Notes under the pieces: generated by a model
Database searches by the model: none
Told to the model about the DNA's origin: nothing
Seen by the model: the letters and a program-made list of their open reading frames with translations, nothing else
Made by a program: the position numbers and the translations under genes
Source: Minisyncoccota bacterium
GTDB taxonomy: Bacteria > Patescibacteriota > Minisyncoccia > Phycocordibacterales > UBA918
Assembly: GCA_021734905.1 (NCBI GenBank)
Contig: JAIPIB010000004.1
Span: 6,743-70,742, forward strand
Direction of reading: 5' to 3'
Length of the DNA stretch: 64,000 bases
Part shown: in pieces, positions 3,331-51,713 of the stretch
How the letters are laid out: each line of letters starts with the position of its first letter
Position numbering within the stretch: the first letter of the stretch is position 1

Positions 3331-3345
3331 GGTAAACTTAGAAAG

Positions 3346-3681
3346 ATGCTTCCAAAAAAAGAACGATTGAGTAGAGAAGAATTCAATCGGTTTTTTTTAT
3401 TGGGGAAAAGACACCATACGCCATCTCTTCAAATCGTGTATGTCCCCCACCCAACACTTCAGGTGTCAGTTGTTGTTTCAAAAAAGATTGCAAAATTAGC
3501 CGTTGAAAGAAATAAGATTCGGCGGCGGATTTATGATATTGTTAAGAACTGTCGGCCGGAGAAGAAGCCTCACGGAATTTTTATTTTTATAGTGAAAACA
3601 CCCGTAAGTGCGGTTCCTTATGCGGCTCTACGAGATGAAGTTGTCGCGGGAATAGATGCAGTAGGAAAGAAGTTTACTTAG
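3346..3681 (+). CDS. rnpA: RNase P protein component
   Basis: 111 aa basic protein; it sits between rpmH and yidC, which is the conserved synteny, and contains an RNase P protein-like RR motif (KIRRRIYD). Confidence 0.8.
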   Translation: MLPKKERLSREEFNRFFLLGKRHHTPSLQIVYVPHPTLQVSVVVSKKIAKLAVERNKIRRRIYDIVKNCRPEKKPHGIFIFIVKTPVSAVPYAALRDEVVAGIDAVGKKFT

Positions 3682-3706
3682 ATATAAACGTGAGGAGCAT
3701 ACACAT

Positions 3707-5792: not shown

Positions 5793-5795
5793 ATA

Positions 5796-6545: not shown

Positions 6546-6548
6546 ATA

Positions 6549-7538: not shown

Positions 7539-7565
7539 ACCTATAGTTTATCACACGAGACAAGG

Positions 7566-8276
7566 TCAAGATTGTTCAGAACTGAATAATGACTGAAAGT
7601 TCATGTACACAACCCAGAGTATCAATGAAGGGAGTAAGTTTGTTACAGGAATAAGGCTTAATGCAATTACCAATAAGGTTATTCCTGTAGACATGCCTGT
7701 TGCAAAAGGATCATTCCCTAAAAATTTATACCAAATCCAAAAACCAAGAAAAGTTACTATCGCAATCAGAGAAGTCACTCCCCAAAATAATATTCCAATT
7801 TCTTGTGCGGGGAAAGGAGTGCTGAGATCAACAAACCAATTGAGAACTTTCCCTGTTATCGTGCTGGTACTAAAATCTTCATAGATAGAAACAAGAACGA
7901 AAGGTGTGAGGCTTAATACCCCAAAAATGAATTGCCATGTGTAACTTGTACATGCCACACCGATTCCCATCCATTTAGAAAACGAAGTAATTTTACGGGG
8001 CTTTGCGAGGCCTCCTTTTTGCATACGTGCCCTTTCAACAAGGTGCTTTGCGAAAGAACCTTTTCGTGAAGGAGAAGGAGCTTCCTCTGAAGAAGTACCT
8101 CGAAAGCGCGAGGCACCGTTTGCAGATTCTCTCCCGTCACGAAGGCTTGGGCGGGCAGACCGAAGACGTTCACTAGTGAGATGAGAACGAGCTCTATCTC
8201 CAAAACGCATCTGTGCATTTCGAATACCTCCTGTAGTATTTCGAGAGTCTTCTGTCTGTGACGAAGATTGTTCCAT
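7566..8276 (-). CDS. Membrane protein with Arg/Ser-rich disordered N-terminus and four C-terminal TM helices
   Basis: The N-terminal ~100 aa are low-complexity and Arg/Ser/Gly-rich, encoded by locally GC-rich DNA. The C-terminal half has four hydrophobic helices. Confidence 0.45.
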   Translation of the reverse strand: MEQSSSQTEDSRNTTGGIRNAQMRFGDRARSHLTSERLRSARPSLRDGRESANGASRFRGTSSEEAPSPSRKGSFAKHLVERARMQKGGLAKPRKITSFSKWMGIGVACTSYTWQFIFGVLSLTPFVLVSIYEDFSTSTITGKVLNWFVDLSTPFPAQEIGILFWGVTSLIAIVTFLGFWIWYKFLGNDPFATGMSTGITLLVIALSLIPVTNLLPSLILWVVYMNFQSLFSSEQS

Positions 8277-8280
8277 AGAG

Positions 8281-10074
8281 TTATGGTGTGCCTAAAAGTT
8301 CTGCACGAGCTTGTTTAATTTGAAGAATTTGTGAAGGATCAGAGGTGATAATTTGATCTTCAGTGTATGAGGCAATAATTTTAATAGCAACATGTTTAAG
8401 ACCGACAAAGAAGATCCCCTCCCCTACTCCCGATTCAAGAAGCATAAATTTCTCTTCATCGGTAAGGTTGAAGACATCCTTAAGAGTATCAACCGCAGTT
8501 GGCGACTGTTTCATTAAGAGCTGAATGGAGGAGTTGGTAATCATCGGAACGCCATACGGTGAACGAAGAAAATCGTCAACATCCTGTGTGATTGTGGCAA
8601 GACCAAGATAATATTTTCGACCACGTTTAGCGATATTGTGAAGGAATGCGGCTGTGTCTTCTGACTTAAGCATCCACCAAGCTTCATCTATAACGAGAAG
8701 GCGTTTTTTTAATTCACGACGGACAGCCCCCCAGATATGATTTGTAATGATGTACATCGCGATAGTTTTCAGCTCTTCTTCCATGTCACGGAGTGAGAAA
8801 ACAACAAACTTTTGGTTGATGTCGACGTTTGTTGGCTCATTCATGAATCCAGACCATGTGCCTGAGGTGTATTTTGTAAGACGTTGGACAAGAGACTCAC
8901 TTCCCTCCATTCCAGCAAGAACCATTTCAAAATCAGAGAGGAGTGGCGGAGGGAGATCGCGATAATCACCCGACCCCGTTATGTCTTTTAGTGCGTATAC
9001 TTCATGGAGAGCTGTGTCGATAATAGCGTCTTCCTCAGGAGTAAGCCCCCCAAGCATAAGTTTAAAAAGCCCCACAAGTTCAATAATGTGTGAACGAAGT
9101 AGATCTTTCGGGTTCTCATCAGGAAGAGGAACAGGAAGATCAAAGGGGTTGATATGGTGATTTGATGAGAGAGAAATATTAAAAAATCTGCCTCCAGTAG
9201 CCTGTGCAAGATATTCATATTCATGTTCAGGGTCAATGACGAGTACTTCAGTACCAAACATGAGTGATCGGAGAATTTCGAGTTTAACTGCGTACGATTT
9301 TCCAGCACCAGATGTCGCAAAGGTCACTGAGTTGTAGTTGGTGAGAGAGAAACGGTCAAAAAGAACGAGCGAGCTGTTGTGTCGATTTACACCATAGAGT
9401 ATCCCCGTGTCTGATGTGAGATCAAAGGAGGTGAATGGAAAGAAACTTGAAAGAGGAGAGGAATTGAACTTACTGTGCACCATAAGTTTGTCTGAAAGAG
9501 TAGGAATGATGCTCCTGAAACCATCTTCTTGTTGAAAGAAAGCGGGCTTTATGTAGACCAATCGAGTGTCGAGCATTCCTTTTACTTCCCCTTCAATTTT
9601 GTTGAGTTCGGCTTCAGTATCCGCGTAGAGGGCAATATAAAGTCCAACATTAAAAAGCTTTTCCTCGGCTTGCTGGAGTTTGTCTCGAAGATCCTCGAGG
9701 TTGCGGTACGCAGCATCAAGTTGCGGATCTCTAACCATCCCCTTCTCGGCACGTTCATTGATTTGACTTTGCACTTCAGCTACCTTTTTTTGGAATTTCT
9801 TCAAGGTTTCGGCGGTATCAATAGGATGAATCACAATAGAGACATCGAGCTCACGTTCAATATTTAATACTGGCTCTAACCAACCATCATTGAGGTATCG
9901 TGGGTATGAAACTGCAAAAAAGATTCTAGAAAGCTTTCCGCTAATGTTAATGCTTTTTGGATTAACGCTAATTGCAGAGGGGGCAATAACGTCAGGTAAA
10001 GAAAGTGGCGCAGAATTAACCCCCTCTTCAAGGGCACCTTTTTTATTTTGTTGTATGAAATCAAAAAGCCCCAT
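8281..10074 (-). CDS. VirB4/TrbE-family conjugation or secretion ATPase, ATPase-domain portion
   Basis: 597 aa. Walker A-like FATSGAGKSYAV, Walker B-like LLVIDEAWWML, and a VirB4-typical motif (VLVIDPEHEYEYLAQATGGRFFNISL). Confidence 0.75.
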   Translation of the reverse strand: MGLFDFIQQNKKGALEEGVNSAPLSLPDVIAPSAISVNPKSINISGKLSRIFFAVSYPRYLNDGWLEPVLNIERELDVSIVIHPIDTAETLKKFQKKVAEVQSQINERAEKGMVRDPQLDAAYRNLEDLRDKLQQAEEKLFNVGLYIALYADTEAELNKIEGEVKGMLDTRLVYIKPAFFQQEDGFRSIIPTLSDKLMVHSKFNSSPLSSFFPFTSFDLTSDTGILYGVNRHNSSLVLFDRFSLTNYNSVTFATSGAGKSYAVKLEILRSLMFGTEVLVIDPEHEYEYLAQATGGRFFNISLSSNHHINPFDLPVPLPDENPKDLLRSHIIELVGLFKLMLGGLTPEEDAIIDTALHEVYALKDITGSGDYRDLPPPLLSDFEMVLAGMEGSESLVQRLTKYTSGTWSGFMNEPTNVDINQKFVVFSLRDMEEELKTIAMYIITNHIWGAVRRELKKRLLVIDEAWWMLKSEDTAAFLHNIAKRGRKYYLGLATITQDVDDFLRSPYGVPMITNSSIQLLMKQSPTAVDTLKDVFNLTDEEKFMLLESGVGEGIFFVGLKHVAIKIIASYTEDQIITSDPSQILQIKQARAELLGTP

Positions 10075-10163
10075 AATACGTTATCTCAAAGGTTAAACAA
10101 CCAATGATGAAATGTAACTACTCATAACTATATTATACATGGTTTGCTTTGGAACAAATTCCT

Positions 10164-10823
10164 CTATCGTTGCGGTGCATGGGATAGGTCTTCAGGATTA
10201 AATATATGATAGAAAAGCTCCGTGAGTTCCTCTGTGCCAAGAGGAGCCGTTCGAATACCGATTCTTGAAAGTCCTTGTTCAACAACAGAGACACGTTGGT
10301 CGAGTTGTGTACGGTCTTCAAAAAACTTATCTTGCGATTCAACGGGAGTTTTAACTTTTGGCCGTAAAAATTGCTTAATACCTTTTACCTCAAGATTTGA
10401 TGGTGTGTACGGGACGACAATAAAAAAGTTCTTCGTCATAATATCCACCTGGCTTGTGAATGTTTGGATAAATTCCATATATTCACGAAGTTGAATTTTC
10501 ATAAGATCATTGTCCTGAAGGGGCTGCCTTGAAGTAAGTACTTCAAGATAAGGACGAATATCGAGCCGTCTTGATTGGATATATATTTGAATAGAAAAAT
10601 CAATGGAATTTAAAAATGATTGAAATTGAGAAAGTATTGCCTGCTGTTCATCGGTCGATTTTAAAGCGAAGTTTATCGATGAGGCAAGGAGTACCATACA
10701 CATCTGACCATCCTTTAAAATAACCACATCATCATGGATGTCATTTATTGGGACGAACTGTTGTGTTGCATTTTGTGTTGCCATGATATTAATCAGCAGT
10801 AGGATTTTCGAGTTTATGAGCAA
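10164..10823 (-). CDS. VirB4 N-terminal domain encoded as a separate ORF (split or frameshifted VirB4)
   Basis: 219 aa. The motif pattern (PINDIHDDVVILKDGQMCMVLLASSINFALKSTDEQQAILSQFQSFLNSIDFSIQIYIQSRRLD) matches the conserved N-terminal region of VirB4/CagE/TraC ATPases. Summed with the 597 aa downstream ORF it gives ~816 aa, the typical VirB4 length. Confidence 0.5.
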   Translation of the reverse strand: MLINSKILLLINIMATQNATQQFVPINDIHDDVVILKDGQMCMVLLASSINFALKSTDEQQAILSQFQSFLNSIDFSIQIYIQSRRLDIRPYLEVLTSRQPLQDNDLMKIQLREYMEFIQTFTSQVDIMTKNFFIVVPYTPSNLEVKGIKQFLRPKVKTPVESQDKFFEDRTQLDQRVSVVEQGLSRIGIRTAPLGTEELTELFYHIFNPEDLSHAPQR

Positions 10824-11208
10824 GGGCCGTCAATGTGCGTTTTTGAGAAGGAAGAGAAGCTTCTTCCGAAGGAAGTTGAGGTGAAGATTTTGATGAGATA
10901 GTTTGCTCTTGCTCTTTCCTCCAAAAATACAACTTACTCTTGGTTGTATAATTGATAAAAGATTCTAAAAATATTGAGAAGGGTCGGTTGTTTATGCGAT
11001 GGAATGCAAGCGACGCAGAAAGAACTCCAAGTGGTACGCCGAACATAACAAAAAATATAAACGGAAGACTAATATAGAGCACAATAAGAGTTCCAGCACC
11101 GCCAGCGAGATAAATGAACTGACGCCATGTGAGGGGGCCAATGATTTTATCCTCGATCTCTATAAATTGTGGAACTTCAAATCGCATAGGTTTATTGTAC
11201 ATCATCAC
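10789..11208 (-). CDS. VirB3-like small two-TM membrane protein
   Basis: 139 aa with two adjacent hydrophobic helices (FIYLAGGAGTLIVLYISLPFIFFVMFGVPLGVLSASLAF). Its 3' end overlaps the VirB4 N-domain ORF, which is the usual VirB3-VirB4 order. Confidence 0.45.
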   Translation of the reverse strand: MMMYNKPMRFEVPQFIEIEDKIIGPLTWRQFIYLAGGAGTLIVLYISLPFIFFVMFGVPLGVLSASLAFHRINNRPFSIFLESFINYTTKSKLYFWRKEQEQTISSKSSPQLPSEEASLPSQKRTLTALAHKLENPTAD

Positions 11209-11240
11209 GGCACCCAGTCATGATGGATGTCTGGATTAAT

Positions 11241-11831
11241 TTATGAACTCTTCTCTTCAGTATCGTGAGTGGCGGCGCTTGTATTTTCCGTTTTAGTATC
11301 AGTGCCCTTGATTTGCTTAGAGTCACTTGCCATTGTCCGATTTGGTGCTAGAGCTTTAAGTACTTCTTCTCGGGTAAGGGGTTTTGGACCCACTCCCCCA
11401 CCACCGATTGGGGAACTTTCCCCTTTTGGCCAATGCTCAGTATGCCCACCATTCCCTTCCGTCACATCTGGAAGTGAAGTATTTTCCTCAAGTTCCTTCT
11501 TCCAGAGATATTCAAATGCTTGGAGGTCGTCAATGACTGGAGAAAGGACCAATGTTTCTATAAGTGTCGCAAGGTGCTCACTTGTTTCAAGTGAGAGAGA
11601 GGTGCTTTCTTGGATATGTTGAGTAAGCTCAAAAAGAGGAGAATAGAAAGTGAGGACAAGCATCACCTCGTTTTCTATTGACTCGTAGAGTGCCACATCC
11701 ACACTTTCAAATTCAAGGATATCGAGGAGCTCTTTTTTAAAAGATTGTGCAGAGACAATGGCATTACACTGTGGGTACTCAAGAAGACGTTTCTTGAGGA
11801 GGATTTCAGCTTCTTGGCGTGTTATTTCCAT
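11241..11831 (-). CDS. Acidic cytoplasmic protein of the T4SS-like operon
   Basis: 196 aa with no TM segments and a Gly-rich C-terminal tail. Translational coupling is suggested: its start ends 5 bp before the upstream gene's stop. Confidence 0.4.
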   Translation of the reverse strand: MEITRQEAEILLKKRLLEYPQCNAIVSAQSFKKELLDILEFESVDVALYESIENEVMLVLTFYSPLFELTQHIQESTSLSLETSEHLATLIETLVLSPVIDDLQAFEYLWKKELEENTSLPDVTEGNGGHTEHWPKGESSPIGGGGVGPKPLTREEVLKALAPNRTMASDSKQIKGTDTKTENTSAATHDTEEKSS

Positions 11832-11836
11832 AATGT

Positions 11837-13930
11837 TTAACTTTTATTTTTAAGCGCATCAACAAGGGCATCATTTCGAGCGTCTTCCTTTGTCTTCTTG
11901 ATCAGCTTGTTAAAAGCCTTTCGTATTGCTTTTCCAGCCGCGTGTTCATGAGACAGAAGACGCCCAACTGGCCATGTGGATAGGAAGTTGCTTTTTTCAA
12001 GAACCGCTGCGTATCCTTCAATACCTTGTGAGGAAATTTCTCGTTTGAGGTTAGTCGCCTGCTTTTCCATTGTCTCTATAAGACCACGGGCTAGCTTACG
12101 TTCTTCAGCATTAGTAATTTTCTTGAAATCATCCCATGATTTCTTAATGTCAGCTCGCAATTCCTTATACTTGTTCTTCATCTCGTCCGTTTTGCCAAAA
12201 TTGGTACTACCAAGGACGCGACGTTGCTTTTCTTGTTCATATTTCTGTTTGTTTTCTTTGATTGTATTTTCGATAGTTCTAATTGCTGTCCTCTGCGCTG
12301 CTCGTCCCGGGTCACCCTTAGGAAGGTCGTCAAGTTTTTCTTTAGCCCGCACAAGAGCAGCTTCGCCTGTTGTGACCAAATCCTTATACCGTGCCACAAC
12401 TGGATCCGTATCATCAACCTCACCTAAAGATTTAGCAAATTTCATCTCCTTTTCCTCAACTTCTTTTTTAACGGTTGTGTACCCGCCCTTCCTCCCATCT
12501 CCTATACCAAGTGCCCTTCCGACACCGCCGACATTCCGTGCATCAAATGAAGCGTCTCCTACAGCACGAGTCCCCTTAAGGGCGCGACGCGCCAAAAAGC
12601 CAACAGCACCTCTTTTGCTGGCGGTGTCTTTAAGAGATTCCCTTTCTGATATTTTATGTGCCCCCCATCCAATCGTTGCTCTTCCAGTACGTGCGGCGAG
12701 GCCAGCCGTCGTTGCACCAATCATTTCTTTTGTTTTACCAACCACCATGTCCCCGCCTTTGATTCCCATTTTTTGTGCAAGTTGGAGAGAGAAGATGAGG
12801 AACATGATGACGATAACAAAGTTGAGGATAACGTTGAGGCTTCCACTTCCGGTAAAAGCATTCACAAATGAGTCGCCCGAACTTATGTTAAGTGCCGCCG
12901 TTACTGAGGAAAGGACGGAAATGGAGATAAGGAGAAGGAGTAGGTATGCTGGAGCGAAGAAGGAGTAGCTTATGAGTTTTCCCCAAAGATTACCCGCCTG
13001 CGCTGCTGTTTTTGGAAAAACTGTTGCAGCAAAGAGAATTGGCGAAAAAATCATTATAAGAATGAGTGCAACAAAACGCACAATGAGAAGAACACCTCCT
13101 GCGGCAAGAACAAAGCCAGCTACGACAAGCATTATTGATGCCATGACATAGAACCAGAGACTGTTGTCAGACGTTAATCTATTGAGAACTTCGGGATTTT
13201 TTGGTTGTGTATAAAAAGTAGTGATTCCAAGCTGTTGGGCAAATTTTGAAGAAATGTCGCTGTCTCTTGTGTCAGAAATTATCGACGTATAAATTTGCGA
13301 TGCGGTGAGATTTGAGAAATCGATGACAACTTTTGTAAAGAAGAGACTGAAGTTAATAAGAAGCGCGCCAATAATAATTTTTGAAAGGATAGATTTAAAT
13401 GAAGAATTTCCAGGGTCAAGGATCGTCCGAATTCCGAGAAAAATGAATCCAAAAATGAAGGCGAGATTTGCAATATCACGGATAAGTTTCCATATATTGT
13501 TTACAGTCTCGCCAAGGGGCGATTTTGTCATTTTGTCACCCATTTTGAAGACCAGTTCTTCAACAGCTGTTTCAAGGATATTCCCACCGAGCCAAGTAAC
13601 CATCGCGGCTGTGGAGAGTATAGCAAGACCGAATTTTGCTTCCCATGAGGTAGAGGGAGCATTTCCTTCAGCCTTCGGAGCCGATGGCTTTGCCTTAGTA
13701 GCAGCGGGTGCAGCAGCAGCATTTCTTTTTGCAGCATCGGCAGTTACTTCAGTAGGATCCATATCTGCAATTTGTGCAGAGACGCGAGATGTTTGTAGAG
13801 AGATTGCCTGAGTGGAATTATTTGATGCAACTGCGAAAAGAGAGACAGACACTGGAGCAAAAATAATACAAAATACCAAAAACCCTGGAAGGATTTTTTT
13901 GAGTATCATGTTGTTTGTATTTTTTGTCAT
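11837..13930 (-). CDS. VirB6/TrbL-like polytopic inner-membrane protein
   Basis: 697 aa. It has a signal/anchor, an Ala-rich linker, at least six central hydrophobic helices, then a charged coiled-coil-like C-terminal third. This is the architecture typical of VirB6-family channel subunits. Confidence 0.5.
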   Translation of the reverse strand: MTKNTNNMILKKILPGFLVFCIIFAPVSVSLFAVASNNSTQAISLQTSRVSAQIADMDPTEVTADAAKRNAAAAPAATKAKPSAPKAEGNAPSTSWEAKFGLAILSTAAMVTWLGGNILETAVEELVFKMGDKMTKSPLGETVNNIWKLIRDIANLAFIFGFIFLGIRTILDPGNSSFKSILSKIIIGALLINFSLFFTKVVIDFSNLTASQIYTSIISDTRDSDISSKFAQQLGITTFYTQPKNPEVLNRLTSDNSLWFYVMASIMLVVAGFVLAAGGVLLIVRFVALILIMIFSPILFAATVFPKTAAQAGNLWGKLISYSFFAPAYLLLLLISISVLSSVTAALNISSGDSFVNAFTGSGSLNVILNFVIVIMFLIFSLQLAQKMGIKGGDMVVGKTKEMIGATTAGLAARTGRATIGWGAHKISERESLKDTASKRGAVGFLARRALKGTRAVGDASFDARNVGGVGRALGIGDGRKGGYTTVKKEVEEKEMKFAKSLGEVDDTDPVVARYKDLVTTGEAALVRAKEKLDDLPKGDPGRAAQRTAIRTIENTIKENKQKYEQEKQRRVLGSTNFGKTDEMKNKYKELRADIKKSWDDFKKITNAEERKLARGLIETMEKQATNLKREISSQGIEGYAAVLEKSNFLSTWPVGRLLSHEHAAGKAIRKAFNKLIKKTKEDARNDALVDALKNKS

Positions 13931-13945
13931 GTGTTTGTAGTGGCT

Positions 13946-15391
13946 CTAGAAGTCTACTTTGCGACAAGCAACGTCAACGGAATTCGTGAAAGTTTGAATT
14001 TGTGTACCAATGTCAGGAATAGTGATTCGTTCGAGACGAACGGTATCGGCAGCAGAATGTATTTGTCCTGCAGTTCTGTAGGAGTTGAAAATGTTAATTA
14101 AATTAAGCTCAGCTTCGGGGATGTTCGTTCCATGGTATTTCGTAAGTAGGCCTGAGGTAATAGATGCAGATGTTGCACTATTTCTGAGAAGATTGTAATC
14201 GTCACGAAGCGTCGTTAGTTTTGCTATGCGAATCGTTGTTGTTGCTGCTTCATTTTGGGCACCTGACTGGATTGAACTTAATGATGAAGACAGTGCACCA
14301 GAATGACATTTCGCTTCTTCCCCATACATACGCACTTTGTAGCCACGAGCATTATTTAAGGTACTGATGATCTGGTTTTGGAGTGCGAGATACTTCGTCT
14401 CGTCAATAATTGGCGTAGCAAAGACATCCTCAGGAGCAGTAGCTGCACTCCGTGGAATAGCCTCAGCAGACATTCGATCAAAGTAATTACCAGAGCCATT
14501 TTGGGAGTTGGTAAGTCCAAGGAGCCCTCCAGCTCCTGAGAGAACTGTTCCTGCAAGTTGAGAGAAGAGTGCTCCAACAAGTTCGTTCATTTCGTCTGCG
14601 ACTTCAAGTCTCCGTCCGGGGCTTCCAATAGCATCGTTGAGGGTGTTTTGAATAATATTTCCTGGGGTGGTAATGTTCCCTTTTTCATCTTTGAAAGAGA
14701 GGAATCCTTGGCCAAAATCAAGAAGCTTTACCTCGCGACCTTGGGCATTACGAATGCTGAGAGCTAGCGCGGTCTGTGCCTCAAGTACAGCACCATACGG
14801 ATTGTTTTGTGGAGTGAGTGTCATACTTCGCCATCCATCCCATCCTCCAGCAGCAAAGTCACCATTAACAAAAGCGTCGACATTTTTGACGACATCACTA
14901 AGTCGACATTGGGTAGTGTAAGTTCGACTCTTTCTATATTGAAGATCAACGGCAAATTGAACATTGAGCTTAAAGGGCGAACAGAGTCCTGCAAGATTTG
15001 ATCCATAGATGAAATCTCCTGCAATTTTGTCTGCTATATCAGTAAGGAATCCCTCAAGATCAGTTATGAACGCAGGACTTCCCTTGAAACCAGAATTCAC
15101 CCACTGTGTTGTGCTCCGTATCATTTCTTTAAGCATGATATTGATTAGCGCCCATGCAATCATGTCAAATGTAAACTCTTTAAGTACGATAGCGTCAGTA
15201 GCTTGGCTTGTAAGTTTAAGTATTGTTTGTCCAACAACAGTTTCTACAATGTGCGCTGGGTCAATAACGACTTCCCAGGCCTCAACTTTATTAAGTGAAA
15301 ACGTCTGAGAAACCGGAGAAAAAACAAAACTACAGACGAGAAGTAGTGTCGTGCATGAAAAGAATAATTTTTTATACGGAATTTTTTTCAT
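13946..15391 (-). CDS. Secreted protein with signal peptide, in the T4SS-like operon
   Basis: 481 aa. N-terminal signal (LFFSCTTLLLVCSFVFSPVSQTFS); the start overlaps the stop of the upstream gene by 4 bp. Confidence 0.5.
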   Translation of the reverse strand: MKKIPYKKLFFSCTTLLLVCSFVFSPVSQTFSLNKVEAWEVVIDPAHIVETVVGQTILKLTSQATDAIVLKEFTFDMIAWALINIMLKEMIRSTTQWVNSGFKGSPAFITDLEGFLTDIADKIAGDFIYGSNLAGLCSPFKLNVQFAVDLQYRKSRTYTTQCRLSDVVKNVDAFVNGDFAAGGWDGWRSMTLTPQNNPYGAVLEAQTALALSIRNAQGREVKLLDFGQGFLSFKDEKGNITTPGNIIQNTLNDAIGSPGRRLEVADEMNELVGALFSQLAGTVLSGAGGLLGLTNSQNGSGNYFDRMSAEAIPRSAATAPEDVFATPIIDETKYLALQNQIISTLNNARGYKVRMYGEEAKCHSGALSSSLSSIQSGAQNEAATTTIRIAKLTTLRDDYNLLRNSATSASITSGLLTKYHGTNIPEAELNLINIFNSYRTAGQIHSAADTVRLERITIPDIGTQIQTFTNSVDVACRKVDF

Positions 15392-16275
15392 GGTGTGTCA
15401 AAAAGGTAAAAAGCTGCCCCCGGCTCGTCATTCGTATAAGCAACCCCCTGCGCGGTGAGAGCGGAGCCAATTGTTTGAAGGGCAAAGAAAAGTGACTGTG
15501 TATCATCTTCATAACCACGTACACGCGCCAATGAATAGAGTGGGTCAGTAAACGAAACTTGCATTGCACCGATGTCGGTTAGGATTGATTCATATGCATT
15601 CACGAGATCGAGATGCATGAGTGCAAGACTTACAGGTACCTGCATCGCAAGTGTGTCCCTAATAATGTTGGTATAAGCTTGATAGATTGGAGTAAGTGCA
15701 TCAAGCTCTCTTGAATCATTTGTTTCAAGTGCCCGCTGGAGTATAAGTGCTTCATTTTCATTATTGATTGAATATCTCAGTATTATCTCAGTGACTTGAT
15801 TACCATAATCTCGAATTGCTTCAGGCGAATCAGGAATAAGTGCGAGCTCAAGTCTTGTGTGTCGCACGCTGAGGGTGTTTTGGTCGATGGCATCAACAGC
15901 TTTTCCAACAAATGCAGAAGGATCACTAAAATCAACACCTTGCATTTTACCCGTCAGGTAATCCTGGAAAAAAGCTTCTGAAAATTTACCGGTAAGTGTT
16001 GTTGGAGATTGGTACTCATCGTCTCCATAAACTGGAATCGTTGAAGATGGGGTGATAATGGTATCAAAAGCCTTTGCCTCAAGAGCTTTTTGCCAATCTT
16101 GGACGCCGTCGCCGTCGCTATCTTTTGCGTCAATAAGAGTACGTGTCGAAGGTGGGGCAGCAACTACTGATCCTTGCAATGAGGCTTCGTTCGAAGTGTT
16201 CCCCACATACAAAGCACTAAGGATTACTACAATCCCTACCGCGAGCGCACCTCCTATACTAATGATGCCTTTCAC
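15388..16275 (-). CDS. Membrane-anchored extracytoplasmic protein, first gene of the T4SS-like operon
   Basis: 295 aa. Single N-terminal TM (IISIGGALAVGIVVILSALYVG). Confidence 0.5.
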   Translation of the reverse strand: MKGIISIGGALAVGIVVILSALYVGNTSNEASLQGSVVAAPPSTRTLIDAKDSDGDGVQDWQKALEAKAFDTIITPSSTIPVYGDDEYQSPTTLTGKFSEAFFQDYLTGKMQGVDFSDPSAFVGKAVDAIDQNTLSVRHTRLELALIPDSPEAIRDYGNQVTEIILRYSINNENEALILQRALETNDSRELDALTPIYQAYTNIIRDTLAMQVPVSLALMHLDLVNAYESILTDIGAMQVSFTDPLYSLARVRGYEDDTQSLFFALQTIGSALTAQGVAYTNDEPGAAFYLFDTP

Positions 16276-38317: not shown

Positions 38318-39790
38318 TCAGGTCACCTTGTGCTTCTTGTGTAGTTCCGCCACTGCTTCAGCTTCCTCTTTTTCTTTCTTGTCTTTTCCCTTCTTACCTA
38401 ACACATCAAGTTCTATTTCGGTCATCGCCATGAGTTCAAGCGCCCTTTTCTCTAAGTATTCAGTGGTATTTTTAAGAGGGTCGTCGAGAACTTCCTCAAG
38501 GAGTGCGTTTAGCGTGTCACCAAGTTTTTTACTTGGTTTTTCGTTAGTTATTTCCATAATACGAGAACCATCAATTTTGAGCATCTTTACTGAAATAGGG
38601 TCGCGGAGGGCTTCTTCAACCATCGCTGTATATTTCCTAAGTCGAAATGGCTGCTCTTTTGGTCTCCCTGTTCCTATTCGGTCACATCGGCGAAGCTTTA
38701 GAAGATCCCAGATATTCTCTTGCCCAACATTTGCTATGGTTCTTCGTACAGCAGAAAGTGTTATTTCAGCAGGGTCAGAGAAGAACATGTGCCATCGTAT
38801 AAGTGTGGTGATGCGGTCAATTCTTTCCCGAGGAAATTTAAGTTCTTGCAATGCTTTTTTCGCAACGCGAGCACCAACAACCTCATGTCCATGGAATGTC
38901 CAGTCATTCTTTTCTTTCGACCATCTGCGTGTTTCTGGCTTTGAAATGTCGTGATAAAGCCCTGCAAGGCGAATGTCGAATTCCCAATCTTTGTCAGCAG
39001 CATGCTGCATGGTGCGGAGGAGGTGTTCGTAGACATCAAATGCATGTGCTTGGTTCTGTGCTACTCCAATTCCGCGAAGAAGATCGGGAGCAACATGCGT
39101 GAGAAGCTTGAGTTTTTCAAGAAGGATAATTCCCTGCATTGGCTGTTTCGAATTAAGGATGCGAGTGAATTCATCGCGGATACGCTCCTTTGAAATTCGT
39201 CCGAGGTTATCACTACTTTCTGCGATTGCGGACATCGTATCGCTTTCAATAACGAACCCGAGTTCAACCGCAAGGCGTACCGCTCGCATCATGCGGAGAG
39301 CGTCTTCCTGGAAGCGTTCAGAAGCAGTTCCAACAGCACGAAGACGCTTATGGAGGATATCCTTTTCCCCGTTGAATAGATCAACGATTTTTTCATCTTT
39401 AAGCCGATATGCGATCGCATTTACAGTAAAGTCACGGCGTTTCAGGTCTTCCTCAAGCGATACACCAAAATTAACCGAGTCCGGTCGCCGTGAATCAGAA
39501 TATTCGGATTCAGTACGATACGGTGTTACTTCAACAACCTTAAGTGTTGGATCTTCTGTCTCTGGGTTTACAATACCAACCGTACCATAATCGTTATTAA
39601 GGAATGTCTCAGGAAAAAGACTTTCAATTTCTGTTGGGTGAGCAGTAGTGGTAATGTCCCAGTCCTTGGGGGTTTTACCGATGAGGAGATCACGAACACA
39701 TCCACCAACAAGGTACGCTTCAAAACCTCGGTGTTCGAGGGTGTCAGCAATGTGTTGAACTTCCTTTGGTATCTCGCTTCGCGTGATCAT
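38318..39790 (-). CDS. cca: CCA-adding tRNA nucleotidyltransferase / poly(A) polymerase family with HD domain
   Basis: N-terminal pol-beta nucleotidyltransferase motif (GGCVRDLLIGKTPKDWD), an HD domain (LYHDISK) and a ~90 aa charged C-terminal extension. Confidence 0.85.
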   Translation of the reverse strand: MITRSEIPKEVQHIADTLEHRGFEAYLVGGCVRDLLIGKTPKDWDITTTAHPTEIESLFPETFLNNDYGTVGIVNPETEDPTLKVVEVTPYRTESEYSDSRRPDSVNFGVSLEEDLKRRDFTVNAIAYRLKDEKIVDLFNGEKDILHKRLRAVGTASERFQEDALRMMRAVRLAVELGFVIESDTMSAIAESSDNLGRISKERIRDEFTRILNSKQPMQGIILLEKLKLLTHVAPDLLRGIGVAQNQAHAFDVYEHLLRTMQHAADKDWEFDIRLAGLYHDISKPETRRWSKEKNDWTFHGHEVVGARVAKKALQELKFPRERIDRITTLIRWHMFFSDPAEITLSAVRRTIANVGQENIWDLLKLRRCDRIGTGRPKEQPFRLRKYTAMVEEALRDPISVKMLKIDGSRIMEITNEKPSKKLGDTLNALLEEVLDDPLKNTTEYLEKRALELMAMTEIELDVLGKKGKDKKEKEEAEAVAELHKKHKVT

Positions 39791-40246: not shown

Positions 40247-41410
40247 ATGATAAGAAAACTTAAGTTCAAAAACTTTTATTCCTTTAAGGAAGAGCAGGTT
40301 CTAGATTTCACTGTTACCAAGAAGAAAAGTGACGAATACTATGAATCTCTTGACGGAACTCAAATAAGCAAAGTGATGGCTTTTGTTGGTCCGAATGCTT
40401 CTGGAAAAACAAGTGTCATGAAGTTGTTTGGGTTTCTGAGCTATTTTCTTACATCAGCTTCCAGAGATATCAAAGATACAAATGACACTGGCTTTAACCA
40501 ATATGCATTTTCAAAACCAGAAACAAGCCTTTTGAGTATAGAATTTGAGACTGCTGAAAATCTATTTACTTATGAATTAGAGTTAGACCCTAAACAGGTA
40601 TACCAAGAAACACTTCATAAGAAGATTTTAAAGAAACGAGCACGACCCCTCTTAGTCTTCCATCGAACAATTGAGGGAGTTGAACTAAATAAAAAAGTTC
40701 TTAAAAATATTCCCAAAAAACAACTTGCGTTGTTGCGAAGTGACATTTCCTTAATTGCTTTTTTAAAAGCTAACTTTGATGTGCCGATAATTAATGAAGT
40801 ATATGAATATTTCAATTTATGGTTTGCAAATAATATAAACGAGTCAGGGTATATTGCTTCCCCAGAAACTAAAATGGACGATGCTGCGCAAAGTTACTTA
40901 AAGATTCCGTCATTGAAAGAAAAAATGGAAGAATTTATTAGAAACTTTGATGTTGGAATTGATAAGTTTCTTATTGAAAAGATAGATAGCAAAATTGTAA
41001 TTAAAGGCTGTCATAAAATTAATGACAAAGAACATAATATTCCTTTCCAGTATGAATCTCGTGGCACAAAAACGTTATTTGTAGATTTACTCCCTATTCT
41101 AGGAGGGTTAGAAATTGGAAATTGCTTAATAATTGATGAAATTGAAACAGGACTTCATCCTCAGGCGGTTGATAAATTAATAAGCTATATCGTAGATCAC
41201 ATAAGAAGATCAAAAAAACAGTTTATTTTTTCCTCTCACTCTTTTAACTTTTTAGAGTTATTCGATGCACCACAAATTTATTTAGTTGAAAAGAATGAAA
41301 ACAAAAGTGAAGTCTTTAGATTAGACTCTCTAGGTGTACGACCAGATGAGAATTTCTACTCTAAATATATGAGTGGTGCTTATGGCGCATTTCCTAAAAT
41401 AAGAGTGTAA
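40247..41410 (+). CDS. AAA_21/ABC-type ATPase, AbiLi/OLD-N-terminal-like (putative abortive-infection ATPase)
   Basis: 387 aa. RecF/SMC-like N-terminus (IRKLKFKNFYSFKEE), Walker A (GPNASGKTS), Walker B (LIIDEIETGLHP) and a signature-like FSSHS motif. Confidence 0.7.
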   Translation: MIRKLKFKNFYSFKEEQVLDFTVTKKKSDEYYESLDGTQISKVMAFVGPNASGKTSVMKLFGFLSYFLTSASRDIKDTNDTGFNQYAFSKPETSLLSIEFETAENLFTYELELDPKQVYQETLHKKILKKRARPLLVFHRTIEGVELNKKVLKNIPKKQLALLRSDISLIAFLKANFDVPIINEVYEYFNLWFANNINESGYIASPETKMDDAAQSYLKIPSLKEKMEEFIRNFDVGIDKFLIEKIDSKIVIKGCHKINDKEHNIPFQYESRGTKTLFVDLLPILGGLEIGNCLIIDEIETGLHPQAVDKLISYIVDHIRRSKKQFIFSSHSFNFLELFDAPQIYLVEKNENKSEVFRLDSLGVRPDENFYSKYMSGAYGAFPKIRV

Positions 41411-41412
41411 AT

Positions 41413-41883
41413 ATGAAAGTTCGCCAAATAAAGAAAATGTGCCTCTTGTTTGGCGAAGGCGGGAAAGAAGAAATCTTCTTTCGGTTCTTAGAAAACAGTA
41501 ACAGGTTCAAGAATCGCTTCCCGGATTGGGGAATAGAAATGTCGCATGCGTCTGGGGAAGCGTGCTCAGTTATACTTCAAAAATGTATAAATTTCACATC
41601 CAAGCGTGGTTTCGATTTGGTAATATGCTTTATTGATACAGATAAACTGCAAGAACATGGAAGTCGAAGTGAAGAAGAAAAGAATCGTTTAGAACAGTTA
41701 GCAACAGAACACAGGATTAAAATAATATGGCAAGATCCTGACCATGAGTCAGAGTTAAGTAGGGCTACAAATGGTCGAATAAAAGGAAAAGCTGGTATGC
41801 GGCGGCGGCTAGAAAATAACCTTCAAGCTATCTCAAAAAGCGCTTTTATCCGTAGGATTTTCGCCTTTTTCCCAAATGAGTAA
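41413..41883 (+). CDS. DUF4276/RloB-like small TOPRIM-like protein (putative AbiLii-like partner)
   Basis: 156 aa. The N-terminal LLFGEGGKEEIFFRFL fits the EGxTE-type motif and ICFIDTD supplies a DxD motif. It starts 2 bp after the ATPase gene stop, suggesting translational coupling. Confidence 0.5.
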   Translation: MKVRQIKKMCLLFGEGGKEEIFFRFLENSNRFKNRFPDWGIEMSHASGEACSVILQKCINFTSKRGFDLVICFIDTDKLQEHGSRSEEEKNRLEQLATEHRIKIIWQDPDHESELSRATNGRIKGKAGMRRRLENNLQAISKSAFIRRIFAFFPNE

Positions 41884-45018: not shown

Positions 45019-45681
45019 ATGATACGCAAATCTGCACAGTATGAACAGGCAAAAGAACTACGAATGCGTGGTTTTACATACGCCGAGGTTGCAAAGATTG
45101 TCGGTGTCGCTAAAAGCACTGTTTCTCTATGGTTTTCACGTGAAACATGGTCTGCGAATGTTGCAGAAGACAACACGAAACGTGCGGCGAAGGAAAATAA
45201 AAAACGTATTACTCTTCTAAACAAAGCCCGAAGTAACCAATTTAGAAAGCTCTATACGGAAGCTGAGCGTTCAGCAACTACAGAATTTAAACATTATAAG
45301 AGCAATCCCCTTTTTATAGCTGGTCTTATGCTTTACTTGAGTAAGGGGGATCATTCAAACAGTCCAGTGATTTGTATTTCAAGCTCACGTAAGGAAATTC
45401 ATCGCTTATTCATTAGGTTTTCAACTGAATTTCTTGGTGTTCAAAAAGAAAAAATGAGATTTTGGTTATTACTTAATTCAAGCCATTCAGCCGAGACATG
45501 TTCACGTTCATGGTCGAAGGAGATAGGTCTTTCCGTGAAACAGTTTCACAAGAATCAGATTACTAAGAACAATAATATAGGTAGTACATTGCATGATGGT
45601 GTTGGAAATACTATAATCGGAGGCACACTCATGAAGAAAAAGCTTCAGAAGTGGGTTGAAACAGCTCTTTTGGAGCTGTAG
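45019..45681 (+). CDS. Hypothetical protein with N-terminal helix-turn-helix
   Basis: 220 aa. HTH-like GFTYAEVAKIVGVAKSTVSLWF. It lies immediately upstream of tRNA-Gly(GCC), in the accessory region. Confidence 0.45.
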   Translation: MIRKSAQYEQAKELRMRGFTYAEVAKIVGVAKSTVSLWFSRETWSANVAEDNTKRAAKENKKRITLLNKARSNQFRKLYTEAERSATTEFKHYKSNPLFIAGLMLYLSKGDHSNSPVICISSSRKEIHRLFIRFSTEFLGVQKEKMRFWLLLNSSHSAETCSRSWSKEIGLSVKQFHKNQITKNNNIGSTLHDGVGNTIIGGTLMKKKLQKWVETALLEL

Positions 45682-45690
45682 ATCACATAT

Positions 45691-45761
45691 GCGGCCATGG
45701 TTAAGTGGTATAACGAGTCCTTGCCAAGGATTAGTCGGGGTTTCGATTACCCCTGGCCGCA
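45691..45761 (+). tRNA. tRNA-Gly (anticodon GCC)
   Basis: Manual cloverleaf: acceptor GCGGCCA/TGGCCGC, anticodon stem AGTCC/GGATT with loop TTGCCAA, T-arm GGGGT-TTCGATT-ACCCC, discriminator A. Confidence 0.85.
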
Positions 45762-46260
45762 CAAAATGCCCCGAAAGGGGTTTTTCTGTGGCCAGGAGAA
45801 AGGTGCCGTGCACCTTTCGTGGTAATCGAAACCGCCGGAACGATGTGAGGTACGAACAAGTGAGGCGTGACCCGTGGCACTTATGAGCGTAGCGAATTAG
45901 TGACCATCAGGTTTCAATTACCCCTGGCCGCACCATTAGATAAGTCGGGCTTTTGCCCGGCTTTTCTAATGGTGGTGGGTAATTGAAAAAGCTTTTAAGT
46001 TAGATTGTGAGGCGTATGCCGAAGCAATCTAGCCAAAAGGTGTACTGAAGCAGTATGCTTTCGATTCTTCTTACAGAAGCTGTCTACTTTGCGGGTGTGG
46101 AACACCTCACAAAGTCTTGCGGAATGATGTTAAATCATTCCTCACCCTGGCCACACCATGTGTAGAATAGGCGGGAGGCTGTGAGACCGCAAAGTGGAGC
46201 TAACAGTGAAATGCCGACTCATAGTACAATTACCCAAGTAACCACCCTTTCCACGGGTGG
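45762..46260 (+). repeat. tRNA-Gly(GCC)-linked repeat region with several sense and antisense copies of the tRNA 3' half
   Basis: Begins CAAAATGCC, as the tRNA-Arg unit does, then a terminator hairpin (CCCCGAAAGGGGTTTTT). Antisense tRNA pieces follow (TGTGGCCAGG, GGTAATCGAAACC, GGGTAATTGAAA). Sense copies are TTTCAATTACCCCTGGCCGCAC near 45915-45937 and CCTGGCCACACCA near 46138. Confidence 0.6.
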
Positions 46261-46437
46261 TTTTTATAAAAGACATCTTTAAGGACATTCAGATTTTTGA
46301 GTGGAAAATGTTGAAAACTGGGGAAAACTAAGTTGATATGTGGATAAAGGACACAAATTTATAATAAAATGTCCTTAAAAAATGGCTTAAGATATATGGA
46401 TCGTCAAAATCCAAGACATCTACCGCAATATGTGCAT

Positions 46438-47063
46438 GTTTCACGTGAAACATTTACGATTTGTGCCTATACACTATATAGTTTCATATGAAACCACATG
46501 GCAAAACACAATGAAATTGGTAAATTAGGAGAGGATTTGGCCGCAAAATGGCTTAGAAATATAGATTTTGCAATTCTGGAAAGGAACTACCTTAAAAAGT
46601 ATGGAGAAATTGATATTGTTGCACGTGAAACAGAAATAATTCACTTTATTGAGGTTAAAACTGTTTCATATGAAACAAAGCGTATACTTGAAGACTCTGT
46701 TTCTCGTGGAACGTGGCGCCCTGAGGAAAATGTTCATTTTGAGAAACAAAAACGACTTGCGCGGACCATTGAGGCATGGATTCATGAAAATGAATATTAT
46801 GGTGACTGGCAAATTGATGTCCTTACGGTACGAGTAGTTCCACGTGAAAAGTTTGCTAGTTTTATGATGATCGAGAACGTGATATTTGAATAGTTCCATG
46901 TGGAACAAAGGAATAACGTTCCACGTGAAACACATAATCTAATTATGTGACTAAAAATCAATGTTTTGAGTTTAGTTAACATAGGTCTGGCCTATGTAAC
47001 TATTTTTGAGTAGTAAAACAGTATGTTTCATATGAAACGTACCGTTTGTGTTCCGTGTGGAAC
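46438..47063. repeat. Array of at least 9 related 14-bp palindromes around and inside the YraN-like gene (GTTTCACGTGAAAC / GTTTCATATGAAAC / GTTCCACGTGGAAC-like)
   Basis: Perfect GTTTCACGTGAAAC at 46438. Perfect GTTTCATATGAAAC at 46481 (4 bp before the start codon), at ~46655 (inside the CDS) and at ~47025. Half-site hybrids occur at ~46621, ~46835, ~46893, ~46918 and ~47050. Confidence 0.7.
46498..46893 (+). CDS. YraN/UPF0102-family putative endonuclease
   Basis: 131 aa. The N-terminal GKLGEDLAAKWLRNIDFAILERNY...GEIDIVARE pattern is typical of YraN. Confidence 0.7.
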   Translation: MAKHNEIGKLGEDLAAKWLRNIDFAILERNYLKKYGEIDIVARETEIIHFIEVKTVSYETKRILEDSVSRGTWRPEENVHFEKQKRLARTIEAWIHENEYYGDWQIDVLTVRVVPREKFASFMMIENVIFE

Positions 47064-47065
47064 AA

Positions 47066-47684
47066 TTACAAGATTTTTCTTATTTCTTCGTTGATTTCTG
47101 GGAATTCAGGTCCAATAAAGTGTCCTCGGTCTGTGAAGGTTATTAGTTTTGCAGTAGGGATGTTTTGCTTGAAATACTCAGCGTGGGTAAATGGGACGAG
47201 GTGATCGTCGGTTGAGTGGTATATTAAGATCTTTTGCACTTTCTTTTCTAGAATCCCTATATTTTTGATGTCAAAATCAAAATCATTGCAGTCCCTGTAC
47301 CCATATTCCTTATTACTAAAGGGTGTAGCGACAAGAAAAAGCGCTTTAATAGGGGAAGGGTACATCGTTTTCGAGCAAATATTTCACCAAAAAGTATCCT
47401 CCTTGAGAATGTCCTATAAGAATGACCTCGCCTGTAAGAAACTCAAAGTATCGTTCAAATCATATTTTCCACTCAATGTACTTCGCGTTTTGCTTGTTGG
47501 GCATCGTGGGTAAGAATACATCATGATTTGATCCAAATTCTTCTCGAATTGTGTCTTTCCACCGTTTGGCATGTTCGTGGCCGAAGAGGTCGTAGATTGG
47601 CTCATTTCATAAGTATCCAAGAAAATCCTCGTATTTGTTAAAGGATTCAGCACCGTGAACAATTAATATTTGAGTTTTCATGGT
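47066..47684 (-). pseudogene. Frameshifted alpha/beta-hydrolase (YdeN/RBBP9-like) pseudogene, paralog of 51087-51713
   Basis: Homology to the intact paralog is spread over three reading frames: MKTQILIVHGAESFNKYEDFLGYL*, then ...LPTMPNKQNAKYIEWKI*, then ...ILIGHSQGGYFLVKYL..., then IKALFLVATPF...HFIGPEFPEI. At least three frameshifts are needed to rejoin them. Confidence 0.7.
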
Positions 47685-47783
47685 ATAAAAAGTGTAGCAC
47701 AGCTTTAAAGGTCGCGTGTTTATTGTACAAAAACAGAAACCGCCACCAACATTGATGACGGAATCCGTCGGATGTTGTGGCGG

Positions 47784-50175: not shown

Positions 50176-51096
50176 ATGATTACACATTATTTTAAGACAA
50201 CAGAGGATACACAGCTTTCCACATGTCCTGAACCAAGAGTTGGAATCTGGACGCATGTTGTTGCTCCGAAAGAGGAGGAGCTTGAGGCACTTTCGGAACT
50301 CTATGGACTTGATGAAACAATTATCAAGGACATTGAAGACTTTTTTGAGGTGCCCCGTTTTGAACAAGAGGGAACTGCTTCATACTTTTTTACGAGATAC
50401 CCCTATGATCTTGAAGATATTGATATTGATACAGTACCTATTCTGATCGTTCTCGGTGAAACATTTTTGATCACCATAGCAGAACAGGAAGTGCCGTTTT
50501 TAAAACCTTTTTTAGATGGGAAGAGAATTTTTTCTACAACACATAAAACAAAATTGTTTTTGGAATTTGTATCAGAACTCATGATTACTTATGAGCGTAA
50601 ACTGACACGAACACGAAAGATGGTGCTCCGAGACACGGGAAGAGTTCGATCAATTAAAGCTCGAGATATTCAGAGGCTGGTATTTTTTGAACAGGAAATC
50701 AATGAGACTATCTCAGCGCTTGTTCCAACACATGATTGGCTGAAGCAACTTACCAAAGGGAATTACATTCAGATGTTTAGTGAAGACCGCGAACTTCTTG
50801 AGGATCTTCTCATTGCGAACAATCAGTTAGTTGATTCATCAAAGTCGATTCTCAAGACAATTCAAAATATTCGTGGAGCAAGTGAATCGATCCTGACACA
50901 GAAATTGAATAGCACTATCAGAATGCTTACAGGATTGACGATTGTTCTTACTATCCCAACACTGATCTCGTCACTGTTTGGTATGAACGTACCACTTCCA
51001 TTGCAAAACAACCCATATGGCTTCTGGTTAATCATTACAATCATTGTTGTGGCGGTAGCGTTCACAATCTACTTCTTACGTAATCGTTGGATATGA
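50176..51096 (+). CDS. corA: Magnesium/cobalt transporter CorA
   Basis: 306 aa. GMN motif (FGMNVPLP) between two C-terminal TM helices, plus the CorA cytoplasmic domain. Confidence 0.85.
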   Translation: MITHYFKTTEDTQLSTCPEPRVGIWTHVVAPKEEELEALSELYGLDETIIKDIEDFFEVPRFEQEGTASYFFTRYPYDLEDIDIDTVPILIVLGETFLITIAEQEVPFLKPFLDGKRIFSTTHKTKLFLEFVSELMITYERKLTRTRKMVLRDTGRVRSIKARDIQRLVFFEQEINETISALVPTHDWLKQLTKGNYIQMFSEDRELLEDLLIANNQLVDSSKSILKTIQNIRGASESILTQKLNSTIRMLTGLTIVLTIPTLISSLFGMNVPLPLQNNPYGFWLIITIIVVAVAFTIYFLRNRWI

Positions 51097-51713
51097 ATAT
51101 AGAGAAGAAACAAATTGTATTCATTCACGGTGGAAATGCATATAGCGAGTATAAAAATTTTCTTGAATGGCTACGCGTAAAAGAAATTGAAGACCCGCTT
51201 GAAGAAGGTGTTTTTAAAAAATGGCAACCAACGTTGCGTACATCACTTTCGCAATCATATGACGTTTATTACCCAGCAATGCCGAATAGTAAAAATGCGA
51301 AGTATGAGGAGTGGAAGATATGGTTTGAGCGGCATCACGCGTTTCTCCGGGACGGCGTCACTCTCATAGGGCACTCGCTCGGGGGATACTTTTTGGCAAA
51401 GTACCTTAGTGAAGAAAAAATGCCAGTTTCGGTACACGCGCTGTATTTCCTCGCGGCACCTTTCGAGAATGATGATTTTGGTGGGGAAGATGGAGGAGAC
51501 TTTGCGTTTGATTCACAAAATCTCCATCGACTTGCTCTGCAAGTCGATGGAGTGTACATTTTTCATTCCAAAGATGACTCTGTTGTTCCATACACACACG
51601 CACTAAAGTATGCAGAAGCACTCCCCGGTGCAGAGCTTGTATCATTTGAAGATAAAAATCATTTTCTCCATGAAAAATTTCCTGAAATTATTGAACATAT
51701 TCAGAAACATTAA
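51087..51713 (+). CDS. Alpha/beta-hydrolase, YdeN/RBBP9-like serine hydrolase
   Basis: 208 aa. Nucleophile elbow GHSLGG and a Ser-Asp-His arrangement (HSKDD...NHFL). Confidence 0.7.
   Translation: MDMNIEKKQIVFIHGGNAYSEYKNFLEWLRVKEIEDPLEEGVFKKWQPTLRTSLSQSYDVYYPAMPNSKNAKYEEWKIWFERHHAFLRDGVTLIGHSLGGYFLAKYLSEEKMPVSVHALYFLAAPFENDDFGGEDGGDFAFDSQNLHRLALQVDGVYIFHSKDDSVVPYTHALKYAEALPGAELVSFEDKNHFLHEKFPEIIEHIQKH

Follow-up and report, generated by a model that had tools for sequence, protein, structure and literature searches.

The palindrome array at yraN

A 64-kb stretch of contig JAIPIB010000004.1 (hereafter the window, meaning the whole stretch of DNA that was analysed) carries, in and around the gene yraN, an array of ten short palindromes that are very probably copies of parS, judging from sequence comparison, and would form an origin-proximal chromosomal centromere array for the protein ParB. 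The DNA comes from a metagenome-assembled genome of an uncultured member of the Patescibacteria (Paceibacteria/'Pacebacteria'), its YraN and DnaA entries being named 'Candidatus Pacebacteria bacterium' (GCA_021734385.1). The window is chromosomal, with genes for PNPase, RNase Y, the CCA-adding enzyme, UvrD and KsgA and four tRNAs among its content (Pfam, tRNA scan). The sites, the genes that border them and the markers of the probable origin are listed in Table 1.

Table 1. Candidate parS sites of the window and the genes that place them on the chromosome
Feature	Position	Strand	Sequence or evidence	Remarks
parS site 1	46437-46452		TGTTTCACGTGAAACA; core GTTTCACGTGAAAC at 46438	perfect 16-bp consensus; 60 bp 5' of yraN ATG
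parS-like site 2	46481-46494		GTTTCATATGAAAC	TA-centred perfect palindrome; end 3 bp before yraN ATG
parS site 3	46618-46631		(T)GTTGCACGTGAAAC(A)	inside yraN, codons 41-45 (VARET)
parS-like site 4	46663-46676		GTTTCATATGAAAC	TA-centred; yraN codons 56-60 (VSYET), right after catalytic E-V-K
parS-like site 5	46699-46712		GTTTCTCGTGGAAC	inside yraN, codons 68-72 (VSRGT)
parS-like site 6	46837-46850		GTTCCACGTGAAAA	inside yraN, codons 114-118 (VPREK)
parS-like site 7	46893-46906		GTTCCATGTGGAAC	first base is last base of yraN stop codon
parS site 8	46918-46931		(C)GTTCCACGTGAAAC(A)	15/16 bases of B. subtilis-type parS
parS-like site 9	47025-47038		GTTTCATATGAAAC	TA-centred perfect palindrome, downstream intergenic
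parS-like site 10	47050-47063		GTTCCGTGTGGAAC	weakest member; 3 bp before stop of convergent hydrolase remnant
Outlying parS-like site	45133-45146		TTTTCACGTGAAAC	inside upstream HTH/LAGLIDADG-like gene (peptide FSRET)
yraN (UPF0102, 131 aa)	46498-46893	+	Pfam PF02021 4e-19; NCBIfam YraN models
cca (CCA-adding enzyme)	38318-39790	-		divergent partner of yraN; other edge of site-rich interval in relatives
dnaA	1503-2894	-		probable origin marker
dnaN	129-1217			origin gene cluster
rpmH-rnpA-yidC	3195-4453			origin gene cluster

Six exact matches to the pattern GTTYCANNTGRAAC are present in the window, all of them within 46438-47038, compared with 0.04 expected from shuffles, and a count of six was reached in 0/100 shuffles, in agreement with the proposal of an earlier note on this DNA that the density of these palindromes is beyond chance. 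With a degenerate site definition (GTTYCA-YR-TGRAAC with at most one mismatch; motif pattern GTTYCAYRTGRAAC), 11 sites were detected, ten at 46438-47063 and the eleventh at 45133, which together span 45133-47063 (1.9 kb, 3% of the window); the same scan found no further site in the rest of the 64 kb. The array proper thus holds ten sites in 0.63 kb, or 16 sites per kb. The earlier note had described at least nine perfect 14-bp palindromes in 630 bp, one of them 4 bp before the start codon and two or three in the coding sequence. The dense dyads are real, with the count corrected to ten in 626 bp, but only four of the ten are perfect palindromes (46438, 46481, 46663 and 47025), and the site that adjoins the ATG ends 3 bp before it. 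Relative to yraN, two sites are upstream, four are inside (more than had been proposed), one overlaps with the stop codon and the last three are downstream.

The start-to-start spacings are irregular (43, 137, 45, 36, 138, 56, 25, 107 and 25 bp), Tandem Repeats Finder detected no array, and the sites have no tandem period and no repeat unit longer than the 14-16 bp core. An Rfam search of the array and its flanks gave no match except tRNA, and a promoter and terminator scan returned background levels only. The central dinucleotide is CG in 5/10 array sites (6/11 with the outlying site), TA in 3/10 and TG in 2/10.

The consensus parS is TGTTTCAC-GTGAAACA, with a 14-bp core GTTTCACGTGAAAC (10.1101/724823); among characterised species, TGTTNCACGTGAAACA is the parS of B. 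subtilis and C. glutamicum, and GTTTCACGTGAAAC that of M. smegmatis (PMC7022226 Table 1). Site 1 with one flanking base on each side is identical to the literature consensus at 16/16 positions; the same string is printed in 27 papers, and the 15 listed among these all deal with ParB/parS or with locating origins. When all sites were matched to TGTTNCACGTGAAACA over 16 bp, site 1 was perfect, site 3 with its flanks (46617-46632, TGTTGCACGTGAAACA) was an exact fit to the N-containing consensus, and the remaining sites had one to three mismatches.

A metagenome control consisted of at least 120 loci picked only for the presence of two close sites, with a CG or a TA centre allowed; paired-site patterns were used for the collection scans, as the bare 14-mer gave single chance matches. 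Among the matches listed, a ParB box-II motif was found at 62/120 loci and a ParA Walker A motif at 67/120, often on short DNA, and the ParB proteins sampled from these loci are ParB by source annotation. At one of them (L307), genes with the Pfam domains ParB_N and HTH_ParB adjoin an array of ten sites. Seven low-GC ParBs from the control loci carry taxon names, none of which belongs to the candidate phyla radiation (CPR). Since the same motif is tied to parAB in other bacteria and site 1 matches parS at every position, a coincidental resemblance is implausible.

The distance from the array to dnaA, which with dnaN and rpmH-rnpA-yidC forms the classical origin gene cluster, is 43.5 kb. The related genome CP064968.1 (GCA_016699245.1) is complete at 1,054,716 bp, encodes a DnaA that is 90% identical and has the same gene order around dnaA, so that the array is placed about 4% of a chromosome away from dnaA, within the usual parS 'ori domain', which extends up to 20% of the chromosome (PMC7022226). 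A perfect DnaA box (TTATCCACA, 46339-46347, minus strand) stands 90 bp 5' of the first site; it is one of two perfect boxes in 64 kb, the other being inside dnaA, and is partly kept in the orthologous locus L016, and it may be there by chance (about 0.5 expected per window). A type IV secretion system (T4SS)-like cluster (4632-16275, minus strand; TrbL/VirB6, PrgI, TraC-like, a TraG-type P-loop ATPase and T4SS pilin) adjoins yidC-rnpA-rpmH-dnaA and keeps this position in two relatives (L332 and L334), one of them a complete genome. All genes of the cluster face dnaA, and replication from an origin adjacent to dnaA would be expected to meet them head-on.

Conservation and selection across relatives

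Orthologous yraN loci were collected by exact-protein look-up and a scan of one genome per species. At 61 yraN loci from Patescibacteria, the segment from -4.5 to +0.8 kb relative to the start of yraN contains 265 sites and the other 693 kb contain 3, which gives 0.97 and 0.004 sites per kb; the sites are most frequent from -500 to +500. At 23 non-CPR yraN loci (Bacteroidota, Clostridia) there are 0 sites. The local enrichment that the earlier note had offered as a test is therefore found in the relatives as well as in the window. In the orthologues the sites occupy constant offsets at about -60, -17, +120, +165, +201, +339, +395/420 and +480-530. The CACGTG core of site 1 stands at the same offset in 10/11 close orthologues (CACATG in L016), site 4 (+165) is unchanged in 11/11, and the outlying site at 45133 is identical in L005, L008, L009 and L013.

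The minus-strand cca and the plus-strand yraN form a conserved divergent pair in the relatives, and in the more distant ones it is cca itself or intergenic DNA that carries the sites. The tie is thus to a chromosomal interval and not to the activity of YraN, and a link between the palindromes and the nuclease function of YraN finds no support. The conserved object is the site-rich cca-yraN interval, anchored across a whole bacterial class, rather than a property of YraN. An even denser array is carried by the metagenomic contig L282 (GC 35%, cca 46% identical), where TGTTTCACGTGAAACA recurs 15 times without mismatch within 1 kb (1045-2028) of non-coding DNA between cca and a 173-aa open reading frame (ORF), followed by dnaA-dnaN; this contig probably represents another Patescibacteria lineage with a parS array.

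The fixed positions also bear on readings in which the palindromes are a dispersed repeat, a miniature mobile element or a restriction-modification target cluster. The repeats are short and numerous, and restriction enzymes cut 6-bp palindromes like their cores, CACGTG and CATATG; a small palindromic repeat family and a restriction-related cluster were among the proposals of the earlier note. However, orthologous offsets are fixed, nothing is repeated beyond the core, no tandem period exists, and copies are absent elsewhere in the 64 kb and nearly so in the flanks of the relatives (3 in 693 kb). The two hexamers occur at chance frequency in the window (CACGTG 11 versus 9.2 expected; CATATG 16 versus 14.0 expected), and no methyltransferase or endonuclease adjoins the array. 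A dispersed repeat fails the local-enrichment test, and this group of explanations is highly improbable.

Selection on the intragenic sites was assessed in a codon alignment of 11 yraN orthologues with 61-76% protein identity. Third-codon conservation is 0.95 within the four intragenic sites and 0.60 elsewhere in yraN (Mann-Whitney p = 3e-9), and this synonymous conservation points to selection on the DNA and not on the peptide. In the intergenic flanks of yraN, only the sites and a single promoter-like element can still be aligned among the orthologues. That element (46351-46400), a dyad AAGGACA-N15-21-TGTCCTT followed by TGTCCTTAAAAAATGGCT...ATATA upstream of yraN, is aligned in part or in full in 11/11 orthologues while the surrounding DNA has diverged, and is probably the promoter or operator of yraN.

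At the protein level, CPR YraN continues after the E-V-K motif with (T/S)-V-S-[Y/H/C/R/W]-E-(T/N), encoded by GTTTCA-YR-TGAAA, and the variable residue tracks the centre dinucleotide (TAT, CAT, TGT, CGT and also TGG) while the arms stay constant. Non-CPR YraN has 'TR...' after E-V-K and no V-S-R/Y-E-T peptides; relative to it, CPR YraN has an insertion of 12-15 residues here, which the +165 and +201 sites encode. An AlphaFold2 model of YraN (pLDDT, the predicted local distance difference test score, 87.7) places the four intragenic sites at strand or helix ends and the loops that follow them. It might be argued that the palindromes are a by-product of coding, YraN needing V-S-R/Y-E-T repeatedly, as the four intragenic sites share one frame and encode similar pentapeptides. 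Yet one of the palindrome's three frames contains TGA, leaving two usable frames, so that a shared frame is unremarkable (a coincidence of only about 1 in 8). In addition, the coding sequence contains only four of the ten sites, the middle residue varies while the DNA arms do not, the peptides are missing from non-CPR YraN, and synonymous positions are 95% conserved in the sites and 60% outside them. The last of these comparisons refutes a coding by-product, which is left with next to no probability.

The cca-yraN interval and its edge contain further elements. A structured non-coding element (45763-46060, core 45786-45938, plus strand) directly follows tRNA-Gly(GCC), with a 10-bp closing stem, a minimum free energy of -62.8 kcal/mol (z = -5.2) and a 3' end ...ATTACCCCTGGCCGCACCA that duplicates the 3' end of the tRNA. 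L015 matches about 300 nt of it at 80% identity, and L005, L019 and L012 have retained parts; it has no Rfam match and no ARAGORN call, and could be either a tRNA-like RNA or the scar (att) of an old integration. An AAA_21/AAA_15 ATPase and an RloB-like protein, a pair typical of OLD/Abi-type defence modules, are encoded between cca and the array (40247-41880, plus strand). Convergent with yraN is an alpha/beta-hydrolase gene (47066-47700, minus strand) of which all that is left is a 99-aa ORF that corresponds to the C-terminal portion of Abhydrolase_1; the gene is probably broken, and an intact paralogue is present at 51087-51713.

Candidate readers of the sites

Several results weigh against parS as the identity of the sites. 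No ParB or ParA was found in the 64-kb window (six-frame motif scans; Pfam on about 50 ORFs), in the DNA reached past either end of the window, which includes 7 kb beyond dnaN, or within +-10 kb of the 61 related yraN loci (motif scans), and a hidden Markov model built from 35 metagenomic ParBs and run against 6,110 ORFs gave no match at the related loci or in the window. The dnaA-region gene tables of two relatives, one of them from a complete 1.05-Mb genome, contain no ParB family. Neither the cumulative GC skew nor the orientation of the genes marks an origin cleanly within the window, so that the origin position is set by dnaA synteny alone. A literature search returned nothing linking parS or ParB to Patescibacteria or Parcubacteria, and nothing linking parS with YraN; one match, a TM7x transcriptome, dealt with host genes only. 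Finally, a TA centre is found in 27% of the sites of close relatives and in 0.3% (1/379) of generic parS sites (p = 1.6e-18), and no characterised chromosomal parS has a TA centre (PMC7022226 Table 1), which makes the binding of TA sites by a canonical ParB an assumption. Such doubt as remains on the parS reading thus mostly concerns the existence and specificity of the cognate ParB, which would be encoded elsewhere in the genome and would bind both CG- and TA-centred sites.

A different reader could be a local transcription factor, for instance the helix-turn-helix (HTH) protein encoded upstream of the array, in which case the likeness to parS would be coincidental. This gene (45019-45681, plus strand) encodes 220 amino acids, with an HTH at the N-terminus and a LAGLIDADG-like motif, 'PLFIAGLMLYxGEGD', and has weak HTH matches only in Pfam and no ParB-like or informative match in NCBIfam or among PDB sequences. 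It occurs in 0, 1 or 2 copies between cca and yraN, by tRNA-Gly, which suggests a selfish or mobile gene. Two sites do lie between the promoter-like element and the yraN start codon, and in many relatives the HTH gene adjoins the array, and its coding region itself contains a site. However, 8/10 sites are inside or downstream of yraN and not at its promoter, arrays are present without an HTH gene between cca and yraN in L014, L022, L031, L044 and L054, and the HTH gene varies in copy number and has a LAGLIDADG-like motif typical of selfish elements. Distant relatives have their sites in cca or beside dnaA, and a 16/16 parS match together with the parAB association elsewhere is not plausibly a coincidence. 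Operators of a local transcription factor are therefore very unlikely. The earlier proposal of operator sites for a dimeric regulator survives in so far as the sites are suited to a dimeric DNA-binding protein, but parS, not a local-regulator operator, is the preferred identity.

The TA-centred sites form a subclass particular to this lineage. Generic parS pairs (379 sites) have CG centres in 338 cases, TA in 1 and CA/TG in 30, compared with 50, 26 and 19 among 98 sites of the 11 close relatives, and 77, 18 and 66 among 181 sites of 46 more distant loci; paired sites with a TA centre gave 0 matches in the viral collection. When sites were compared by centre, the arms were perfect in 25/26 TA-centred sites of close relatives, all exactly GTTTCATATGAAAC, versus 9/50 CG-centred sites, in which 41/50 had an arm mismatch (p = 1.4e-11). 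On the simplest reading, this looks like the signature of a single reader that would accept any Y-R centre, with perfect arms offsetting the weaker centres.

Alternatively, the locus may be a composite of two site classes, with the CG sites serving as parS for ParB and the GTTTCATATGAAAC sites as a separate signal for a second protein, either a ParB/Noc-type paralogue or another dimeric HTH protein. The difference in arm perfection and the near-absence of TA centres from generic parS and paired viral sites speak for such an arrangement, as does the retention of TA at non-coding offsets, in 8/11 orthologues at -17 (site 2) and in an aligned downstream site in 6/11 (site 9). ParB and Noc, moreover, provide a precedent for paralogues acting on related palindromes (10.1101/724823). 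Nevertheless, in wider relatives the site after E-V-K runs through CG, TA, CA and TG centres, CA/TG centres are common in the 46 distant loci, and the vicinity of the array yielded no candidate for a second reader, so that two readers are considered unlikely. If the view is widened to any two distinct site classes, with TA read by an altered ParB or a second protein, to the extreme case of no canonical ParB, or to a functional embedding in yraN, such as nuclease expression coupled to ParB occupancy, these departures from a conventional parS array are together rather unlikely.

Comparison with known systems and significance

Read as parS, the array is a known kind of element in a Patescibacteria lineage where none was described. 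Like the chromosomal parS of ParABS systems (B. subtilis Spo0J/parS, Caulobacter ParB/parS and others), it is built from the 16-bp palindrome TGTTNCACGTGAAACA, and in both cases there are several clustered origin-proximal copies that may sit inside genes. The differences lie in density, with ten sites in 0.63 kb here and 1-22 sites per chromosome in model species (PMC7022226 Table 1), in the separation from parAB, which is not nearby, and in the anchoring at yraN across a bacterial class. To these are added the in-frame embedding of sites in yraN and the conserved TA-centred subclass, which is virtually absent in generic parS. The arrays of L282, L278 and L307, which come from other uncultured bacteria, likewise have many sites per kb, with 29 sites in 6 kb in L278 and the ten sites of L307 located by parA/parB, but they are CG-centred and mostly intergenic, whereas the window array is largely in or overlapping coding sequence and mixes CG, TA and TG centres. 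Paired sites were also seen in IMG/VR contigs of about 11-12 kb (L345, L348, L368, L377, L381, L382, L389, L392, L395, L396, L410 and others, mostly from sample series 3300045988), with an inverted parS pair at each end; these contigs look like small linear elements with parS in terminal inverted repeats.

Centromere arrays of plasmids, such as F plasmid sopC with its tandem 43-bp repeats, also concentrate many ParB-family sites in less than 1 kb. They are regular tandems of longer units, in contrast to the irregular spacing of 25-138 bp seen here with nothing repeated outside the core, and the present replicon is a chromosome with dnaA, tRNAs and RNases. A related 16-bp palindrome, the Noc-binding site (NBS, TATTTCCCGGGAAATA), is read by a ParB-family paralogue (10.1101/724823). 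At half-site positions 1 and 6 the NBS (ATTTCCCGGGAAAT) has A and C, and parS has G and A. All window sites have G at the first of these positions and A (or T/G) at the second; they keep the parS pattern and depart from it only in the two central bases. NBS, moreover, are scattered along the chromosome rather than clustered. The switch between ParB and Noc nevertheless shows that a lineage can change or duplicate a parS-type specificity (10.1101/724823).

By analogy with characterised systems, ParB dimers would recognise each 16-bp palindrome through their HTH domains, bind CTP, close into clamps and slide onto the flanking DNA. The resulting partition complex would form near the origin, be moved by ParA where this is present, and load SMC, and ten sites in 0.63 kb would provide a very efficient ParB loading zone. 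The sites have long been fixed in the cca-yraN interval, with several of them written into yraN in one of the two stop-free frames, at predicted loop positions that would tolerate the peptide V-x-(R/Y/H/C)-E-T.

The finding leaves the concept of parS unchanged. Although the Patescibacteria/CPR are one of the largest bacterial radiations, no chromosome segregation signals for them were found in the literature searched. The locus also illustrates overlapping codes, with a DNA-binding code laid over coding sequence to the point that the YraN residue after E-V-K follows the site centre, and the lineage-specific TA-centred sites prompt the question of how the centre of parS is recognised by ParB. 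For a whole class of bacteria, the cca-yraN interval would be a centromere landmark, useful for orienting and checking assemblies of metagenome-assembled genomes and for predicting the origin side, and it could guide the design of ParB-fusion or chromatin immunoprecipitation experiments in the few cultured members.

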